From: Escherichia phage vB_Eco_Jura
Sequence record: LR999871
Length of the DNA: 64,000 nucleotides
Strand: one strand, 5' to 3'
In this document: one piece after another, positions 22,436 through 64,000 of the stretch
How positions within the stretch are numbered: the first letter of the stretch is position 1
How the letters are laid out: every line of letters begins with the position of its first letter
Notes under the pieces: model-generated
The model's database searches: none
Told to the model about the DNA's origin: nothing
The model's input: the letters and a program-made list of their open reading frames with translations, nothing else
Made by a program: the position numbers and the translations under genes

Positions 22436-25219
<2,784 letters not shown>

Positions 25220-42516: not shown

Positions 42517-43329
42517 ATGTCTACTATCGAACATCAGATGCACCTCGAAAAGCTGTACAACAAGAACCAACTGTTACCAAGAATGCGTCAGGAGTTTGAA
42601 GAAAACTCTGGTATTGATTTCAAAGCCTTCTTTGCACATATAGGCATTGATTACAAATTTGGCATTGATGCAATGGTTCAAATGGCTCTGCATAAGCGAG
42701 CTGACCTACCAACATTAGTTGGTACATTGCGTCATCATTGCAAATCTGCACAGGAAGTAGCAGACAACCTTTTTAAGATGGCAAGTGAGGATTGCTTTAA
42801 CTTTGACCCGACCATCGACAAGTTCATTGTCATTTATACAATCAGCGATGACGTACAGCATGAACTGGATTCATTTCAATATCCACTACCTATGGTAGTA
42901 CGTCCTAAGCTGTTAACTAAGAATTATGGTACTGGGTACTTCACATGTAATAAGAGTGTGATTCTTAAGAAGAACCATACTGACGATGACATCTGCTTAG
43001 ACCATCTGAACCGTATGAACAAGATTCCATTGTCTATCAATTGGGATGTAGCTCATATGGTTAAAAATGAATGGGCTAATCTGGATAAACCGAAAGAAGG
43101 TGAAACTCGTCAGGAGTTTGAAAAACGTGTACGTGCATTCCAGAAATATGACCGTACTGCACATGAAGTAATGGGTTTATTGACCCAGGAAGGCAATAAG
43201 TTCTATCTGACTCATCGTCCGGATAAACGTGGTCGTACCTATTGCCAAGGTTATCATGTAACATACCAGGGAACTTCTTGGTGTAAAGCCGTGATTGAAC
43301 TTGCTGATAAGGAACTTATCAATGATTAA
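42517..43329 (+). CDS. Phage RNA polymerase II, small subunit (T7-like RNAP N-terminal homolog), 270 aa
   Basis: HRPDKRGRTY resembles T7 RNAP DxRGRxY; paired with downstream catalytic subunit as in N4. Confidence 0.75.
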   Translation: MSTIEHQMHLEKLYNKNQLLPRMRQEFEENSGIDFKAFFAHIGIDYKFGIDAMVQMALHKRADLPTLVGTLRHHCKSAQEVADNLFKMASEDCFNFDPTIDKFIVIYTISDDVQHELDSFQYPLPMVVRPKLLTKNYGTGYFTCNKSVILKKNHTDDDICLDHLNRMNKIPLSINWDVAHMVKNEWANLDKPKEGETRQEFEKRVRAFQKYDRTAHEVMGLLTQEGNKFYLTHRPDKRGRTYCQGYHVTYQGTSWCKAVIELADKELIND

Positions 43330-43831
43330 AGACAGAATGCCTATGGGTTACTGGAACAAACCAATAGAAGAATTAGCAATAGCTCACCCAAAAGAAGCTG
43401 CTAATAGTGCTAGTGGTTACATACGTATATCCAGAAACAATAGGATTCATTATTTACATCGTTGGTTGTGGGAACAAAAACATGGTGCTATCCCTGCTGG
43501 ACACACCATTGACCATCTTAATGGAATCCGGACTGATTGCCGTTGGGAAAACATGCGTTGTATCCCTTGGGCAATTAACTTACGTAATAGTACAAAGCGT
43601 GCTGATAACACGTCAGGAGTAACAGGTGTCTCACTATGGAAATCTCCAAAAGGAGTGTTCTGGAGAGCAACTTGTACTGACAACTTAACAGGAAAACAAC
43701 GATGTAAGGTGTTTTCCATAAATAAATACGGTTACAACTTTGCATTTGAATTAGCATGTGATGCTCGTGCCGATATGATTGAACGCCTGAACCAACAAGG
43801 TGCAGGTTATACCGACCGTCACGGTCAATAA
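43322..43831 (+). CDS. HNH homing endonuclease with AP2-type DNA-binding domain
   Basis: HTIDHLNGIRTDCRWENMR HNH motif plus GVTGVSLWKSPKGVFWRA...YGYNFAFELACDARA; start overlaps upstream stop. Confidence 0.8.
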   Translation: MIKDRMPMGYWNKPIEELAIAHPKEAANSASGYIRISRNNRIHYLHRWLWEQKHGAIPAGHTIDHLNGIRTDCRWENMRCIPWAINLRNSTKRADNTSGVTGVSLWKSPKGVFWRATCTDNLTGKQRCKVFSINKYGYNFAFELACDARADMIERLNQQGAGYTDRHGQ

Positions 43832-43885
43832 TCCCTATAAGCAGGCTCTCCATAGTGGGGAGCCAAGAAGCAAGAGGAATATACA

Positions 43886-45100
43886 ATGCAAACTTTTACT
43901 GCCCGTGAATATCTGAAAATTGACATTGCTAATAACTATGGTCTGGATAAAGAAGACTGGGATGACCGTATTGCATGGTTCGATAAGAATGAGAACAACC
44001 TGCTGAACCTTGTAAGAGAAGCTGAAGAACCAGCCCTGTTCTATGCTGGTGTTAAAGCATGGATGGACGTTAAGGAAGGTAAGCCAATTGGTTATCCTGT
44101 TGCACTGGATGCTACATCATCTGGTCTACAGATTCTGGCTTGCCTGACTGGTGACCGTAGAGCTGCTGAACTATGTAACGTTGTTAACTATCGTGATGAA
44201 AGTGGCAAAGTTAAACGTCGTGATGCTTATACAGTTATCTACAACAAGATGCTGAACACTCTTGGTAAAGGTGCTCGTATCAAACGTAATGACTGTAAAC
44301 AAGCAATCATGACTGCTCTGTATGGTTCAGAGGCTAAACCAAAGGAAGTATTTGGTGAAGGCATTATGCTCAACGTATTTGAAAGCACAATGAATGTGGA
44401 AGCACCTGCTGTATGGGAATTGAATAAATTCTGGTTACAGTGTGGTAATCCAGAGGCTTTCGTATATCACTGGGTAATGCCAGATGGCTTTAACGTATAT
44501 ATCAAAGTAATGGTAAATGAAGTGGAGACTGTCCACTTCTTAGATAAGCCGTATGACTGTGTTCGTAAAGTACAAGGTACTGAAGAGAAGACTCGTATGC
44601 TATCTGCCAATACCACCCACTCTATTGATGGCCTAGTAGTACGTGAGCTGGTTCGTCGTTGTGACTATGACAAGAACCAGATTGAATACATCAAGGCTCT
44701 TTGCAATGGTGAAGCTGAATATAAGACTTCTGAAAAGAACTATGGCAAAGCAATGGAACTGTGGGGCTACTATGAGAAGACAGGATTCCTGACTGCTCGT
44801 ATCTTTGATTATCTGGATTCTGAAACTATTAAATTAGTAAATACTCAGGACATTCTAGACCTGATTGAATCCATGCCTAAGAAACCATTCCATGTACTCA
44901 CTGTACATGACTGCTTCCGTTGCCTGCCTAACTATGGCAATGACATTCGTCGTCAGTACAACAACCTGTTAGCTACTATTGCTAAAGGTGACTTACTATC
45001 TTTCATTATGAGCCAGGTTCTAGGCCAAGAAGTTACTATTGGCAAACTAGACCCGACTCTATGGGAAGATGTATTAGAAACCGAATACGCTCTATCTTAA
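43886..45100 (+). CDS. Phage RNA polymerase II, large catalytic subunit, 404 aa
   Basis: T7-like motif A LDATSSGLQILACLTGD, motif B KQAIMTALYGS, motif C LTVHDCF. Confidence 0.85.
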   Translation: MQTFTAREYLKIDIANNYGLDKEDWDDRIAWFDKNENNLLNLVREAEEPALFYAGVKAWMDVKEGKPIGYPVALDATSSGLQILACLTGDRRAAELCNVVNYRDESGKVKRRDAYTVIYNKMLNTLGKGARIKRNDCKQAIMTALYGSEAKPKEVFGEGIMLNVFESTMNVEAPAVWELNKFWLQCGNPEAFVYHWVMPDGFNVYIKVMVNEVETVHFLDKPYDCVRKVQGTEEKTRMLSANTTHSIDGLVVRELVRRCDYDKNQIEYIKALCNGEAEYKTSEKNYGKAMELWGYYEKTGFLTARIFDYLDSETIKLVNTQDILDLIESMPKKPFHVLTVHDCFRCLPNYGNDIRRQYNNLLATIAKGDLLSFIMSQVLGQEVTIGKLDPTLWEDVLETEYALS

Positions 45101-45105
45101 TAACT

Positions 45106-45140
45106 AAGGCTATCCCTACGGGGGTAGCCTTTATTTTTTT
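45106..45140 (+). terminator. Rho-independent terminator
   Basis: AAGGCTATCCC/GGGGTAGCCTT hairpin followed by T-run. Confidence 0.65.
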
Positions 45141-47806: not shown

Positions 47807-48163
47807 ATGGCTCAAGAAAAGAATCGTCGTCAGACACTTATCGAACGTATTCAGGCCAGAATCAAATTACAGGACTTAGGCTATACCGTTAATGGTCAGC
47901 CTAGTCTCTGTCACATCTGGACTGGTTCACATTCAGGTAATGGACGTGGTGGGCAATATGGCAGGATTTCCGTGAATGGAGTTACCTCTGCAACTCACAT
48001 TATTGCCTATACCCATTATCATGGTTATATCCCCAATAAGATGCAAGTAGACCATCTCTGTAATAATCGTCTGTGCTGTAACCCTGAACATCTTGAATTG
48101 GTTACTCACCAAGAGAACCAGAGAAGAAGGGCTAAGCGTTCTAAATCTAAAGGAAATAAATAA
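47807..48163 (+). CDS. Free-standing HNH endonuclease, 118 aa
   Basis: HIWTGSHSGNGRGGQYGRISVNG...QVDHLCNNRLCCNPEHLELVTHQEN. Confidence 0.8.
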   Translation: MAQEKNRRQTLIERIQARIKLQDLGYTVNGQPSLCHIWTGSHSGNGRGGQYGRISVNGVTSATHIIAYTHYHGYIPNKMQVDHLCNNRLCCNPEHLELVTHQENQRRRAKRSKSKGNK

Positions 48164-61246: not shown

Positions 61247-63211
61247 ATGCGTCACATTACATTCAACAATGAGGGTATCTACCCTATTGCTATCCTTACT
61301 ACAACGTTACGTAAGGATGATATTGTCAAAGCATACATGGAACCCTGGGATGTAGATAAAGATTCAGTAATGATTCTTGAACTTCATACAGCCCCAGGGA
61401 AAAAGAAAACTCCTGCTAAAGAGATGCAGGAGTTTATTACCCAAGAATTAGTGCCAGCATTCGAAGCAGCACAAACTCAGTATATCATCTGTGGTGATTC
61501 TGAATATTACAAACAGCTAACCAAACAAGGTAAAGCTGATGCCAATATTGGCTATGTAATGGATTGTGCTTATGGGAACCAGAAAGTTATTTACGTTCCC
61601 AATTACAGACAAATCTTTTATGACCCGGATAAGGTAAAGACTAAGATTGCTTTATCTATGCAGGCTCTGATTGATTATGTCTCTGGTTCTTATGTTGAGC
61701 CAGGAACTAAGATTATCCACTATGCTGATTATCCATTAACTCCAGAAGCTATATCTAAGTGGTTAGATAAGTTACTGGAGATGAATGTTCCGTTAGCAGT
61801 GGATATAGAAACTTTCAGTCTGAAGCATTATGACTGTGGTATAGGCACTATTACATTCTGTTGGAACAAGCATGAAGGGATAGCATTCCCTGTGGATTAT
61901 GAACCAATTGAGGGGGCTACTGAAGCTCCTTATGGTAGACAAGTTCACAACATGCTTGTTCGTTCTATGCTCAGGGACTTTTTTATTAAGTATCTGAACA
62001 GGCAGATGTATCACAATATTGCCTTTGACGTATATGCACTCATTTACCAGTTATTTATGACAGACCTTCTGGATACGGAAGGGTTGTTGCATGGCATGAG
62101 TATCATGCTAAGAAACTGGGATTGCACTAAGTTAATTACCTATCTGGCCACTAATTCTTGTGCTGGTAATAAGCTAAGTCTTAAAGACCAGGCTCAGGAA
62201 TATGCTGGTAACTATGCTCAAGAAGAAATCAATGACATTACCAGAATCCCATTAGCAGAGTTGTTGGAATACAACTTAGTGGATGGATTATGTACCTGGT
62301 ATGTCTATGAAAAGCATTGGGATACTCTGGTTAATGACCAACAGTTAGATGTTTATACAAACATCTTTAAACCTGCATGTGAAGATATTATTCAAATGCA
62401 GTTAACTGGTATGCCTATCAATATGAAGACAGTATTGGAGGTAGAAGAAGCATTAACCCAAGACTATAACAATGCGTTAAAAACGATTGCTGACAGTAAA
62501 GTAATCAAAGATTTTACCCGTCTTCTTAATGAAGAATGGGTAGAAAAACAGAACCAGATTCTGAAGAAGAAACGAGTAACTTTAGCTGATGCTAAAGAGC
62601 AGTTTAATCCAAACTCAGGTGTTCAATTACAGAAGCTACTTTTTGAGTTCCTGGAGTTACCTGTGCTGGGTCTGACTGCAAGTAAACTACCCGCTACTGG
62701 TAGTGGCATACTCAAGTCTTTGAAGAACCATACTCAAGATGCCAGTATTCTGGAAATTCTTGATGCTCTGATTGATTACAAAGCTGTAGATAAAATTCTG
62801 ACAGCATTTATTCCAGCATTAAAAAATGCCAGACAAGGACCAGATGGTTGGCATTATCTCTTTGGTAATCTGAACTTAGGTGGGACTGTATCAGGTCGTC
62901 TATCCAGTAGTGAACCAAACCTACAGAACCTACCTTCTGGTTCCAGATATGCCAAGATGATTAAGAAATGCTTTGAGGCTCCCCCTGGGTGGATATTCTG
63001 TGGGCTAGACTTTGCTTCTCTCGAAGACCGTATATCTGCTTTAACAACCAAAGACCCTAACAAGCTGAAGGTGTACATGGGTGTGACTGTTTATACAGTT
63101 ACTATAGAAGGAGTTGACCATCATATCCGAGATGATGATACAATCGTTTATGATGGTAAAACTTATACCGGTGAGGAGTTCTATGACGCTTTTACCCGTG
63201 GCCTTCTATGA
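61247..63211 (+). CDS. DNA polymerase (family A), N-terminal part: 3-prime-5-prime exonuclease domain through motif A
   Basis: Exo motif LAVDIETFS; Pol A motif A LDFASLEDRI near C-terminus; ORF stops at 63211 before motif B; start MRHITF with GAGGT RBS. Confidence 0.8.
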   Translation: MRHITFNNEGIYPIAILTTTLRKDDIVKAYMEPWDVDKDSVMILELHTAPGKKKTPAKEMQEFITQELVPAFEAAQTQYIICGDSEYYKQLTKQGKADANIGYVMDCAYGNQKVIYVPNYRQIFYDPDKVKTKIALSMQALIDYVSGSYVEPGTKIIHYADYPLTPEAISKWLDKLLEMNVPLAVDIETFSLKHYDCGIGTITFCWNKHEGIAFPVDYEPIEGATEAPYGRQVHNMLVRSMLRDFFIKYLNRQMYHNIAFDVYALIYQLFMTDLLDTEGLLHGMSIMLRNWDCTKLITYLATNSCAGNKLSLKDQAQEYAGNYAQEEINDITRIPLAELLEYNLVDGLCTWYVYEKHWDTLVNDQQLDVYTNIFKPACEDIIQMQLTGMPINMKTVLEVEEALTQDYNNALKTIADSKVIKDFTRLLNEEWVEKQNQILKKKRVTLADAKEQFNPNSGVQLQKLLFEFLELPVLGLTASKLPATGSGILKSLKNHTQDASILEILDALIDYKAVDKILTAFIPALKNARQGPDGWHYLFGNLNLGGTVSGRLSSSEPNLQNLPSGSRYAKMIKKCFEAPPGWIFCGLDFASLEDRISALTTKDPNKLKVYMGVTVYTVTIEGVDHHIRDDDTIVYDGKTYTGEEFYDAFTRGLL

Positions 63212-63728
63212 ACAACGGTATAAGATTTCCGATGAAGGTTTCATCTTAAATCTTGCAAACAATCAACCCCTAAAACCGACTCTCAATCCTAACGGATACC
63301 TTAAGGTTGGGTTAGCTAATGGGGATGGTACACATCACCAAGAGCTACTTCATATTCTGGTAGCTAAACACTTCATCCCTAATCCTTATGGCTATGAACA
63401 GGTGAACCATAAAGATGGTAATAAACTGCATTGTCATAAGGATAATCTGGAATGGTGCTCTGCTACTCAGAATGTTGAACATGCACTTAAAACAAGGCTA
63501 CGTCCTGGTTACATGTCTGCTGACGATAAAGAAAAGTATCTCTTTGAGGTGCTGGCGGGTAAGCAAGTTAAAGACATTGCTTTTGAAATAGGTAGACGTC
63601 CTGAAACTTTGCATAAGATGCTCAGAACTACTGCTGACCGACTTGGTGTTCGAAATGAGTGGGATGATGTTATGAGGAGAAATAGAAAAGATGTTGCTTT
63701 ACGACAGCTTGCCAAAATCAACTCATGA
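63183..63728 (+). CDS. HNH homing endonuclease interrupting the DNA polymerase gene
   Basis: YEQRYKISDEGFILNL N-terminus and VNHKDGNKLHCHKDNLEWCSATQN HNH motif; GAGGAG RBS before ATG 63183 (track ORF extends to 63114). Confidence 0.8.
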   Translation: MTLLPVAFYEQRYKISDEGFILNLANNQPLKPTLNPNGYLKVGLANGDGTHHQELLHILVAKHFIPNPYGYEQVNHKDGNKLHCHKDNLEWCSATQNVEHALKTRLRPGYMSADDKEKYLFEVLAGKQVKDIAFEIGRRPETLHKMLRTTADRLGVRNEWDDVMRRNRKDVALRQLAKINS

Positions 63729-64000
63729 CTTCACTGGCAAGAAAATTGACAACGTAGTCAAAGCCGGGAGTTCATCAGGTTACGATGGGCATAGTCTTCG
63801 TGCATATGCTTACTTCGGTGAGATGATGCCCGACATTAAAGATACGGTAGAGTCTGTTAATTCTATTCAGGAGAAGTACAAAGCATATCGTCAGGATTCT
63901 AAAGCACCTACCTTTGCTCTTACCTATCAGGGTACGTACATCACTTTGATGAAGAACTGTGGTTTCCCTGAACAGAAAGCTCGAATGGTTGAGGAACGTT
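63691..64000 (+). CDS. DNA polymerase (family A), C-terminal part beginning before motif B (partial, runs off window)
   Basis: Frame open from 63676 to window end; DGHSLRAYAYFGE and motif B RQDSKAPTFALTYQG; possible ATG 63691 with GAGGAG 11 nt upstream. Confidence 0.7.
   Translation, partial: MLLYDSLPKSTHDFTGKKIDNVVKAGSSSGYDGHSLRAYAYFGEMMPDIKDTVESVNSIQEKYKAYRQDSKAPTFALTYQGTYITLMKNCGFPEQKARMVEER

Follow-up and report, generated by a model that had tools for sequence, protein, structure and literature searches.

A probable free-standing HNH-AP2 homing endonuclease gene and its imported flanks between the RNAP II subunit genes of an Enquatrovirus

Free-standing homing endonuclease genes (HEGs) of the T4 family include segF, segG, segB and mobE, with segH/hef replacing mobC/mobE. 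In this family, mobE is located between the RNR subunit genes nrdA and nrdB (PMC2790892, PMC2988022). Endonuclease genes, HNH genes among them, have also been described between RNAP1 and RNAP2 of N4-like phages, in which zero to eight spacer genes lie between the RNAP II subunit genes, and an HEG was proposed to have split an ancestral T7-like RNAP (Amgarten et al. 2017, PMC5418858). That work presented no empty/filled allele pairs, co-conversion tracts or target site, and none was reported in Enquatrovirus. Proteins that combine HNH and AP2 domains are already known as a type of HEG product (Magnani et al. 2004, cited in Barth et al. 2023, PMC10448857).

The DNA analysed here, referred to as the window, is a stretch of 64,000 nt from Escherichia phage vB_Eco_Jura (LR999871). 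It belongs to Enquatrovirus and is ~98-99% identical to N4, SPSP and PMBT57. When compared by blastn, N4 (EF056009) gave one collinear, circularly permuted match to the window at ~98% identity, and only two large insertions relative to N4 were found, at 43330-43861 and 63076-63777. The first of these lies between the two RNAP II subunit genes and is the subject of this study (Table 1).

Table 1 Features of the RNAP II operon and other HNH ORFs in the window
Feature	Position	Strand	Evidence or remark
RNAP II small-subunit gene (N4 gp15 orthologue, 270 aa)	42517-43329	+	phrog_2166, 1e-117
Recoded, imported small-subunit 3' end (co-conversion tract)	43244-43329	+	26/86 nt vs SPSP, N4; 88% to L024
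HNH-AP2 homing endonuclease gene (HEG), free-standing, 169 aa	43322-43831	+	Pfam, PHROG
Imported intergenic segment with hairpin	43832-43873	+	23 differences from N4-type phages
Shine-Dalgarno (SD) sequence of large-subunit gene, GAGGAA	43874-43879	+
RNAP II large (catalytic) subunit gene	43886-45100	+	RNA_pol PF00940; phrog_2051, 3e-172
Terminator-like hairpin 3' of RNAP II operon	45106-45131
HNH ORF, HNH_3 + zf-His_Me	47807-48163		N4's own gp22
HNH ORF, NUMOD4 + HNH_3	63183-63728		interrupts DNA polymerase gene relative to N4

The HNH-AP2 gene within the RNAP II operon

The HEG begins with an ATG at 43322 and ends with a TAA at 43829-43831, its 169 aa corresponding to 170 codons including the stop. 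The start falls within the final two small-subunit codons, and the small-subunit stop codon TAA (43327-43329) falls within the first HEG codons (AATGATTAA), giving an overlap of 8 nt. An SD-like AAGGA (43309-43313) lies 8 nt upstream of the HEG start, inside the small-subunit gene, and 54 nt separate the HEG stop from the large-subunit ATG. A promoter and terminator scan identified no promoter or terminator of the HEG's own beyond shuffled expectation. This arrangement suggests that the HEG is transcribed with the rest of the RNAP II operon and translationally coupled to it. The HEG is a separate ORF whose reading frame differs from that of the small-subunit gene, which rules out an intein. 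An intron-encoded origin was also ruled out, since an Rfam search across 43150-43950 at E-values up to 1 gave no match. Over the HEG region and the DNA polymerase insertion taken together, neither a group I intron nor any other pertinent RNA was found, and the sole match was a chance snoRNA (E = 0.28).

The protein matched Pfam HNH_3 (PF13392) at residues 43-87 with 61.2 bits against a cut-off of 24.8 (E = 7e-17), and its PHROG match was phrog_99, HNH endonuclease (6e-30). AP2 (PF00847) was matched at residues 112-153 with an E-value of 4.5e-7 and 30.5 bits, just below the gathering score of 33.3; most members of the clade described below are listed with AP2 in precomputed Pfam. Across 38 homologues, D64, N77 and N89 are invariant and conservation reaches 90% or more at H65 and N86, and all five residues are present in the window protein. 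D64, H65 and the Asn residues are catalytic-type positions (D-H general base and metal-ligand Asn), and the DH...N...N motif is kept. The AF2 model of the protein (pLDDT 90) places strands at 61-65 and 78-82 followed by a helix at 83-88 in the HNH part, the order of a beta-beta-alpha-metal fold, and strands at 103-108, 111-119 and 126-132 followed by a helix at 138-158 in the AP2 part. Foldseek matched the model to I-HmuI (1u3e) with a probability of 1.0 and an rmsd of 3.0 A over 65 columns, at an E-value of only 0.04, and also to AP2-domain proteins (6sy0, Toxoplasma mitoribosomal proteins) with weak E-values, all Foldseek E-values being above 1e-3. A sequence search against PDB chains gave no match at E-values up to 1. 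On the strength of the domain matches and the model, the HEG product is assigned to the HNH (His-Me finger) proteins of the HNH_3 / I-HmuI subclass. I-HmuI-type enzymes are nickases, so a double-strand break by the HEG protein is not assured.

Extent and source of the imported segment

Boundaries were drawn from explicit mismatch maps of the window against N4 and against SPSP. Relative to SPSP, the closest relative, 4/727 nt differ upstream (42517-43243) and 1/1227 downstream (43874-45100), which amounts to 0.1-0.5% per flank and to 5/1954 differences, or 99.7% identity, for both flanks together. The same stretches differ from N4 at 10/727 and 15/1227 nt. Between them, the small-subunit gene differs from SPSP and from N4 at 26 positions in its final 86 nt (~30% divergence), those against N4 falling within 43244-43322. 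Against SPSP, this count has P ~1e-46 under the flank mismatch rate. The recoded gene end reads CQGYHVTYQGTSWCKAVIELADKELIND in the window and SQGYHVNYQGTSWNKAVLEFAEKEVID in N4, and the tract holds the Ser codon TCT at 43276-43278 as well as the AAGGA and the HEG start codon described above. On the other side of the HEG, the intergenic sequence has a different arrangement from that of N4 as far as 43873, and the right-hand end of the converted tract falls in 43832-43873. This segment contains a hairpin (43844-43864) with a 9-bp stem, GGCTCTCCA-TAG-TGGGGAGCC, and an RNA fold z of -2.6; it is of the Gamaleyavirus empty-allele type (EC1-UPM, pSb-1, UE-S5b), unlike the N4 type. GC content gave no foreign-DNA signal (0.41 vs 0.412).

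A preliminary description of this DNA had placed the insertion at an ORF that contains HNH and AP2 domains, overlaps the small-subunit stop and precedes the catalytic-subunit gene. The ORF is as described and its coordinates stand, but the foreign segment relative to the other enquatroviruses, as delimited by the mismatch maps, is larger than the ORF and spans 43244-43873 (~630 bp). By the same maps, the small-subunit gene is a hybrid, in which 42517-43243 matches the Enquatrovirus backbone and 43244-43329 is donor-derived, and from 43874 to 45100 the sequence is again assigned to the Enquatrovirus backbone. The mobile unit comprises the recoded small-subunit 3' end, the HEG and the downstream intergenic hairpin. 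The presence of a ~30%-divergent tract inside nearly identical flanks indicates recent import by recombination.

Homologues of the HEG were sought in a collection of 5.8 billion proteins. No identical copy was found in this collection, and the closest protein, P0001, had 85% aa identity. P0001 is encoded on L024, a contig of a metagenomic N4-like phage, whose last 86 small-subunit nt are 88% identical to the window tract, including the unusual W-C-K codons. The two HEGs share 83% nt identity with a dS of ~1, whereas in the flanks, comprising the remaining small-subunit sequence and the beginning of the large-subunit gene, L024 is only 69-71% identical to the window. The closeness of tract and HEG to L024, set against flanks at this level, indicates that the cassette came from an L024-like phage, itself unsampled, into an Enquatrovirus backbone. 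The crossovers lie in stretches conserved between N4-like phages. These comparisons show that a backbone near-identical to SPSP/PMBT57 gained 43244-43873 from another N4-like phage through homologous recombination.

Empty, filled and scarred alleles at the subunit junction

In the phage collection, the RNAP II region (2.6 kb) matched 15 Enquatrovirus records at 97.6-98.8%. All 15 lacked ~512 nt in the middle of the region; none carried the HEG, and one identical empty allele was common to them all. Empty-site alleles were also found in Gamaleyavirus (EC1-UPM and phiG17). The earlier proposal that the HEG is a mobile insertion relative to N4, in which the small- and large-subunit genes are only 47 nt apart, is borne out by these alleles, and the comparison with related genomes that it called for yielded abundant empty sites rather than a gene carried by all relatives. 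Its premise of adjacent subunit genes is true of N4 but is not the rule in N4-like phages, as the inter-subunit gap ranged from -4 to >1800 nt in 80 IMG/VR loci. The preliminary description had also considered the genome unusually rich in HEGs on account of two further HNH ORFs (Table 1). Both ORFs were confirmed by Pfam, and a total of three is the most seen in Enquatrovirus but unremarkable among N4-like phages; G7C has 5 HNH genes and Vibrio N4-like phages have 4 (PMC3670811). The ORF in the DNA polymerase gene is 99-100% identical in 11 other enquatroviruses, where it is already annotated as an HEG. No group I intron was found in that insertion by Rfam at a permissive E-value, and an intron origin is unsupported.

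Gamaleyavirus provided a second, independent before/after pair in another genus. Isolates UE-M3, UE-S5a and UE-M6, from one study, carry an HEG orthologue with 77.5% aa identity, whereas UE-S5b from the same study, with flanks 99% identical to the UE-M3 group, has a 79-aa ORF in place of the HEG. UE-M3 and UE-S5b are identical up to ...GGCTATCAC, are then ~25-30% divergent to the gene end, and become identical again at the large-subunit Shine-Dalgarno sequence. Their left boundary lies within ~10-17 nt of the window boundary. The HEG is not discussed in the paper describing the UE phages.

A third arrangement was identified on the IMG/VR contig L006, whose HEG is 79% aa identical to that of the window. 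Immediately after its HEG stop, L006 retains part of a gene end of the HEG-less type, CAGGGAACCAGTTACAAC...GATGATTAA (CAGGGAACCAGT...GATTAA), and downstream of this remnant lies a 38-aa ORF of a kind usual in other Gamaleyavirus alleles. The remnant indicates that the cassette brings its own replacement gene end, which in L006 was joined upstream of the resident end. It further suggests that the break in the recipient occurs ~65-85 nt before the small-subunit stop, near the H-(I/V)-N-Y-Q-G-T-S codons.

The Ser codon of this stretch was compared among Enquatrovirinae alleles encoding ...Y(Q/A)GTS.... It is TCN in 10/10 alleles bearing any of three nucleases and AGY in 20/21 nuclease-free alleles and in the L006 remnant, an association that is confounded by linkage, as tract and nuclease move together and the alleles are not independent events. 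The exception, U1G, is nuclease-free and has TCG in a pSb-1-type tract that lacks the nuclease. In the window, TCT takes the place of the AGT of HEG-less alleles. No single synonymous change turns AGY into TCN or the reverse, and the codon thus labels separate tract lineages that move together with the nucleases. As a lead, the AGY to TCN recoding would fit a cleavage-resistant target, though linkage alone could give the same association. TCN is common to three unrelated nucleases and the marker is not specific to the HNH-AP2 enzyme.

The window HEG belongs to a clade of 165-170 aa proteins with 48-85% identity, found in 11 independent N4-like contexts (the window, UE-M3, L006, HN03, L023/24, L025, L028, L029, L121, L122 and L123). 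In all 11, the HEG starts within a few nt of the stop of a small-subunit orthologue (40-70% identity), and clade loci have 0-8 further small ORFs between the HEG and the large-subunit gene. Distant homologues (<=45% identity, with N-terminal extensions) lie at other sites, where they follow an RNR gene or a sigma-like gene. The clade occupies 4 of the 80 IMG/VR N4-like loci. This census was run through the small-subunit gene and was more informative than a query with the HEG protein alone, which returned one true orthologue (L006) and short HNH-motif matches. The slot between the subunit genes is also filled by a second HNH-AP2 family that is 23% identical (Mimir124, PW8, L038), by a third family of NUMOD1-type endonucleases (G7C, pSb-1, HK2, L056) and by several ORFans. 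Among the other occupants, Pfam gave no match for the 53-, 79-, 98- and 103-aa ORFs, the 169-aa ORF of L033 or pSb-1 gp54. A separate ORF, sporadic presence at a fixed site, empty alleles and flank co-conversion, by which intronless homing is recognised, are all found at this locus.

Proposed homing and comparison with known systems

It is very probable, judging from the alleles compared, that the gene is an active free-standing HEG belonging to an HNH(I-HmuI-type)+AP2 clade specialised for the RNAP II subunit junction of Schitoviridae. In a mixed infection, the enzyme would cut or nick the HEG-less allele in the small-subunit gene, ~65-85 nt before the stop, and the likely target site would lie around CAY-RTN-AAY-TAY-CAG-GGA-ACC-AGY. 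A nick may become a double-strand break through replication. The break would then be mended with the HEG-bearing genome as template, the HEG would be co-converted into the cut genome together with flanking markers, and nearby markers of the competitor phage would be excluded. The recoded tract (e.g. Ser AGY to TCN) would protect the carrier from self-cleavage and would at the same time embed the SD and start codon that translationally couple the HEG to the small-subunit gene. We infer cleavage of the HEG-less allele, repair copying, self-immunity and marker exclusion, with the target site and immunity derived from allele comparisons and marker exclusion, reasonably, from analogy with the T4 seg/mob genes.

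The dN/dS ratio was 0.08 between the HEGs of the window and L024, its closest homologue, and 0.13 between those of UE-M3 and L006. These values and the intact ORF suggest a protein under functional constraint, for which nuclease activity is predicted. Strong purifying selection (dN/dS 0.08), the tight translational coupling inside the RNAP II operon, the long-lived association with that operon across Schitoviridae and the sequence-specific DNA binding of AP2 domains (PMC10448857) would also suit a domesticated or dual-use protein, one that might, for example, regulate the RNAP II operon by binding DNA or serve as a weapon against co-infecting phages. This is improbable: 95% of N4-like loci and all other enquatroviruses lack the gene, which is thus unneeded for RNAP II function, unrelated nuclease genes interchangeably fill the same slot, and purifying selection is equally expected of an actively homing HEG.

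A dead or decaying remnant, or a chimera assembled in part from another N4-like phage present in the sample, is very improbable. The window is a single assembled sequence, and a mis-assembled bubble from a mixed phage sample could look the same; its junctions fall in stretches conserved between N4-like phages, as a graph mis-join would give, and AP2 scores below the gathering threshold. However, the ORF is intact and of the full length seen in all clade members, its catalytic residues are conserved and dN/dS is low, and the hybrid small-subunit gene is in frame and provides a coupled start. The same architecture and boundary were moreover found in independently sequenced cultured phages (UE-M3, UE-S5a and UE-M6 vs UE-S5b). 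An HNH-AP2 gene that was ancestral in Enquatrovirus and deleted in N4 and the other sequenced members would agree with the age of the clade at the RNAP II site across Schitoviridae, and with HEG identity that roughly follows small-subunit identity among distant lineages, but is extremely improbable given an 86-nt gene end 30% divergent from all enquatroviruses between flanks at 0.1-0.5%, a tract that matches a phage with flanks only ~70% identical, one identical empty allele in 15/15 relatives, and the fact that a deletion would not recode the neighbour's end or swap the hairpin type.

An active HEG specialised for this site might also be given a longer history. Mapped onto the T7-type RNAP profile, the two subunits are contiguous and do not overlap, the small one reaching position 423 and the large one beginning at 428. 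These contiguous halves and the wide, patchy distribution of the clade are consistent with a subunit junction that is the original wound, at which an ancestor of the HNH-AP2 clade would have divided a once single T7-like RNAP gene in the ancestor of Schitoviridae. Since then, the junction would have been a long-lived homing site, where at least three unrelated nucleases replaced each other, each linked to a recoded, self-immune gene end that supplies the translational start. We regard this history as unlikely; if it is true, the novelty would lie in naming the resident lineage and its target, the idea of a split by an HEG having come from Amgarten et al. 2017.

As a natural before/after comparison for a free-standing HEG, the locus is unusually clean, with a tract bounded to a few nt. 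Together with the second pair in another genus and the L006 scar, it makes the target site directly testable in the N4 system. The alleles suggest that essential transcription genes of N4-type phages swap short segments via nuclease-driven recombination, which bears on taxonomy from RNAP marker genes and on recombination forecasts for N4-like therapeutic cocktails.

Of the known systems, the closest are the orthologues of the same length in Gamaleyavirus UE-M3/UE-S5a/UE-M6, Burkholderia phage vB_BpP_HN03 and metagenomic N4-like contigs (P0001-P0027). These named orthologues are 59-85% aa identical to the window HEG, with the clade extending down to 48%, and have the same overlap with the small-subunit stop. 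They differ in residing on different genus-level backbones, the window copy being no more than 85% identical to any of them, and some lineages have 3-8 extra small ORFs 3' of the HEG. G7C has a putative endonuclease in the same genomic slot between the RNAP II subunit genes (PMC5418858), but this occupant is a NUMOD1-containing endonuclease, ~32% identical to pSb-1 gp54, without an HNH_3/AP2 match.

The likeness to the T4 seg/mob genes is that of free-standing nuclease genes located between conserved genes, with a patchy distribution, flank co-conversion, cleavage at some distance from where the gene is inserted, and one slot taken in turn by different nucleases. Most T4 seg genes belong to the GIY-YIG family and MobE is an HNH protein without AP2, unlike the HNH-AP2 protein of the window. 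Cleavage and marker exclusion have been experimentally demonstrated for the T4 genes, whereas both are predicted for the window HEG. In mitochondria of Allomyces macrogynus, Paquin et al. are said to have described in 1994 a hybrid atp6 in which a mobile endonuclease ORF came with a foreign 3' gene end. There the original gene end can persist downstream, as in L006, a resemblance we treat as a lead; the Allomyces enzyme differs in being of the GIY-YIG family, fused in frame and encoded in a fungal mitochondrion.

The domain order of the window protein, with an N-terminal HNH and a probable C-terminal AP2, is also that of the 'IPA-HNH' proteins of ICP1 phages, whose genes, like the window HEG, lie at recombination-tract boundaries between related phages (PMC10448857). 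The ICP1 proteins belong to another phage lineage with another target and have no canonical HNH_3 Pfam match, which is strong in the window protein. I-HmuI and I-HmuII of Bacillus phages SPO1 and SP82 have in common with the window protein HNH_3, the DH...N...N motif and, according to the model, the catalytic fold. I-HmuI is intron-encoded, binds DNA through NUMOD/helix-turn-helix elements and is a strand-specific nickase, while the window protein is free-standing and has a probable AP2 domain. The kind of phage parasite and the hotspot between the RNAP II subunit genes are thus known, and no new kind of system is described here. What is new is the first occupied site in Enquatrovirus, a precisely bounded conversion tract, the L006 scar, a site-specific clade and a concrete target-site hypothesis.

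Occupants of the slot between the RNAP II subunit genes

The small- and large-subunit genes of RNAP II flank a slot that is a hotspot. Loci L113-L120, L019-L022 and L031-L046 of N4-like phages have genes of three or more unrelated nuclease families in it, along with several ORFans (36, 38, 53, 79 and ~98-103 aa), and most of these genes had a start that overlapped the small-subunit stop codon. In Escherichia phage U1G (locus L119), a 53-aa ORF lies in the slot in place of the endonuclease, and the small-subunit 3' end is the recoded end of the pSb-1/HK2 type (YAGTSWNKAVVE, Ser codon TCG). The U1G allele may be a resistant, nuclease-free allele that remained when the nuclease gene was lost or replaced.

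Two further genes border the subunit genes (table). The metagenomic contig L023, which encodes the closest homologue of the window's homing endonuclease, has another HNH_3+AP2 gene just 5' of the small-subunit gene, and homing endonuclease genes therefore lie on either side of the latter. The 169-aa ORF of locus L033 contains the motif W..RC.N...YYGGRGI.VC.EW and gave no match to Pfam. It might encode a further nuclease or a DNA-binding protein with a target on the other side of the junction.

Coordinates and properties of the compared features
Feature	Location	Properties
Small-subunit gene	window 42517-43329	phrog_414 positions 229-423
Large-subunit gene	window 43886-45100	phrog_414 positions 428-596
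169-aa ORF	L033 3610-4119 (IMG/VR 3300045988_012749)	ends exactly at large-subunit start
Second HNH_3+AP2 gene, 158 aa	L023 1080-1556	directly 5' of small-subunit gene
Hairpin type A		AGCCAATAGGCT...AGACGC; N4, UE-M3, Mimir124, phiG17
Hairpin type B		GGCTCTCCA-TAG-TGGGGAGCC-AAGAAGCAA; window, EC1-UPM, UE-S5b, pSb-1
HNH_3 + zf-His_Me ORF	window 47807-48163	E 9e-20; N4 gp22 orthologue
NUMOD4+HNH_3 gene	window 63183-63728, within insert 63076-63777	DNA polymerase gene split relative to N4

Large-subunit leader and the proposed split of an ancestral RNAP

Two alternative types of conserved hairpin were identified upstream of the large-subunit Shine-Dalgarno sequence in the Enquatrovirinae by comparing window positions 43844-43864, L001 2326-2337 and the intergenic regions of L020, L019, L022, L002 and L021. 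The hairpin type was independent of the gene that occupies the slot; possible roles are RNA processing and translational control of the large subunit.

The two subunits matched non-overlapping, contiguous pieces of the T7-type RNAP profile phrog_414. This profile alignment fits the published idea that an ancestral single-subunit RNAP was split by insertion (PMC5418858).

HNH genes elsewhere in the window

The insertion point of the NUMOD4+HNH_3 element corresponds to N4 positions 24650-24656, ~20 aa past the DFASLEDR motif of the DNA polymerase. The N-terminal polymerase ORF continues past the insertion point as far as a stop at 63211, within the insert, and the C-terminal part picks up at 63778 in a different frame, for which ATG 63691 is a possible restart. 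No group I intron was detected in the insert by Rfam. The same NUMOD4+HNH_3 gene was found in 11 other enquatroviruses (99-100% identity), all of which have the DNA polymerase annotated as two CDS, and is absent from N4. Since the ORF at 47807-48163 is orthologous to gp22, N4 too has an HNH gene, which is at odds with one paper that describes N4 as free of such selfish elements.
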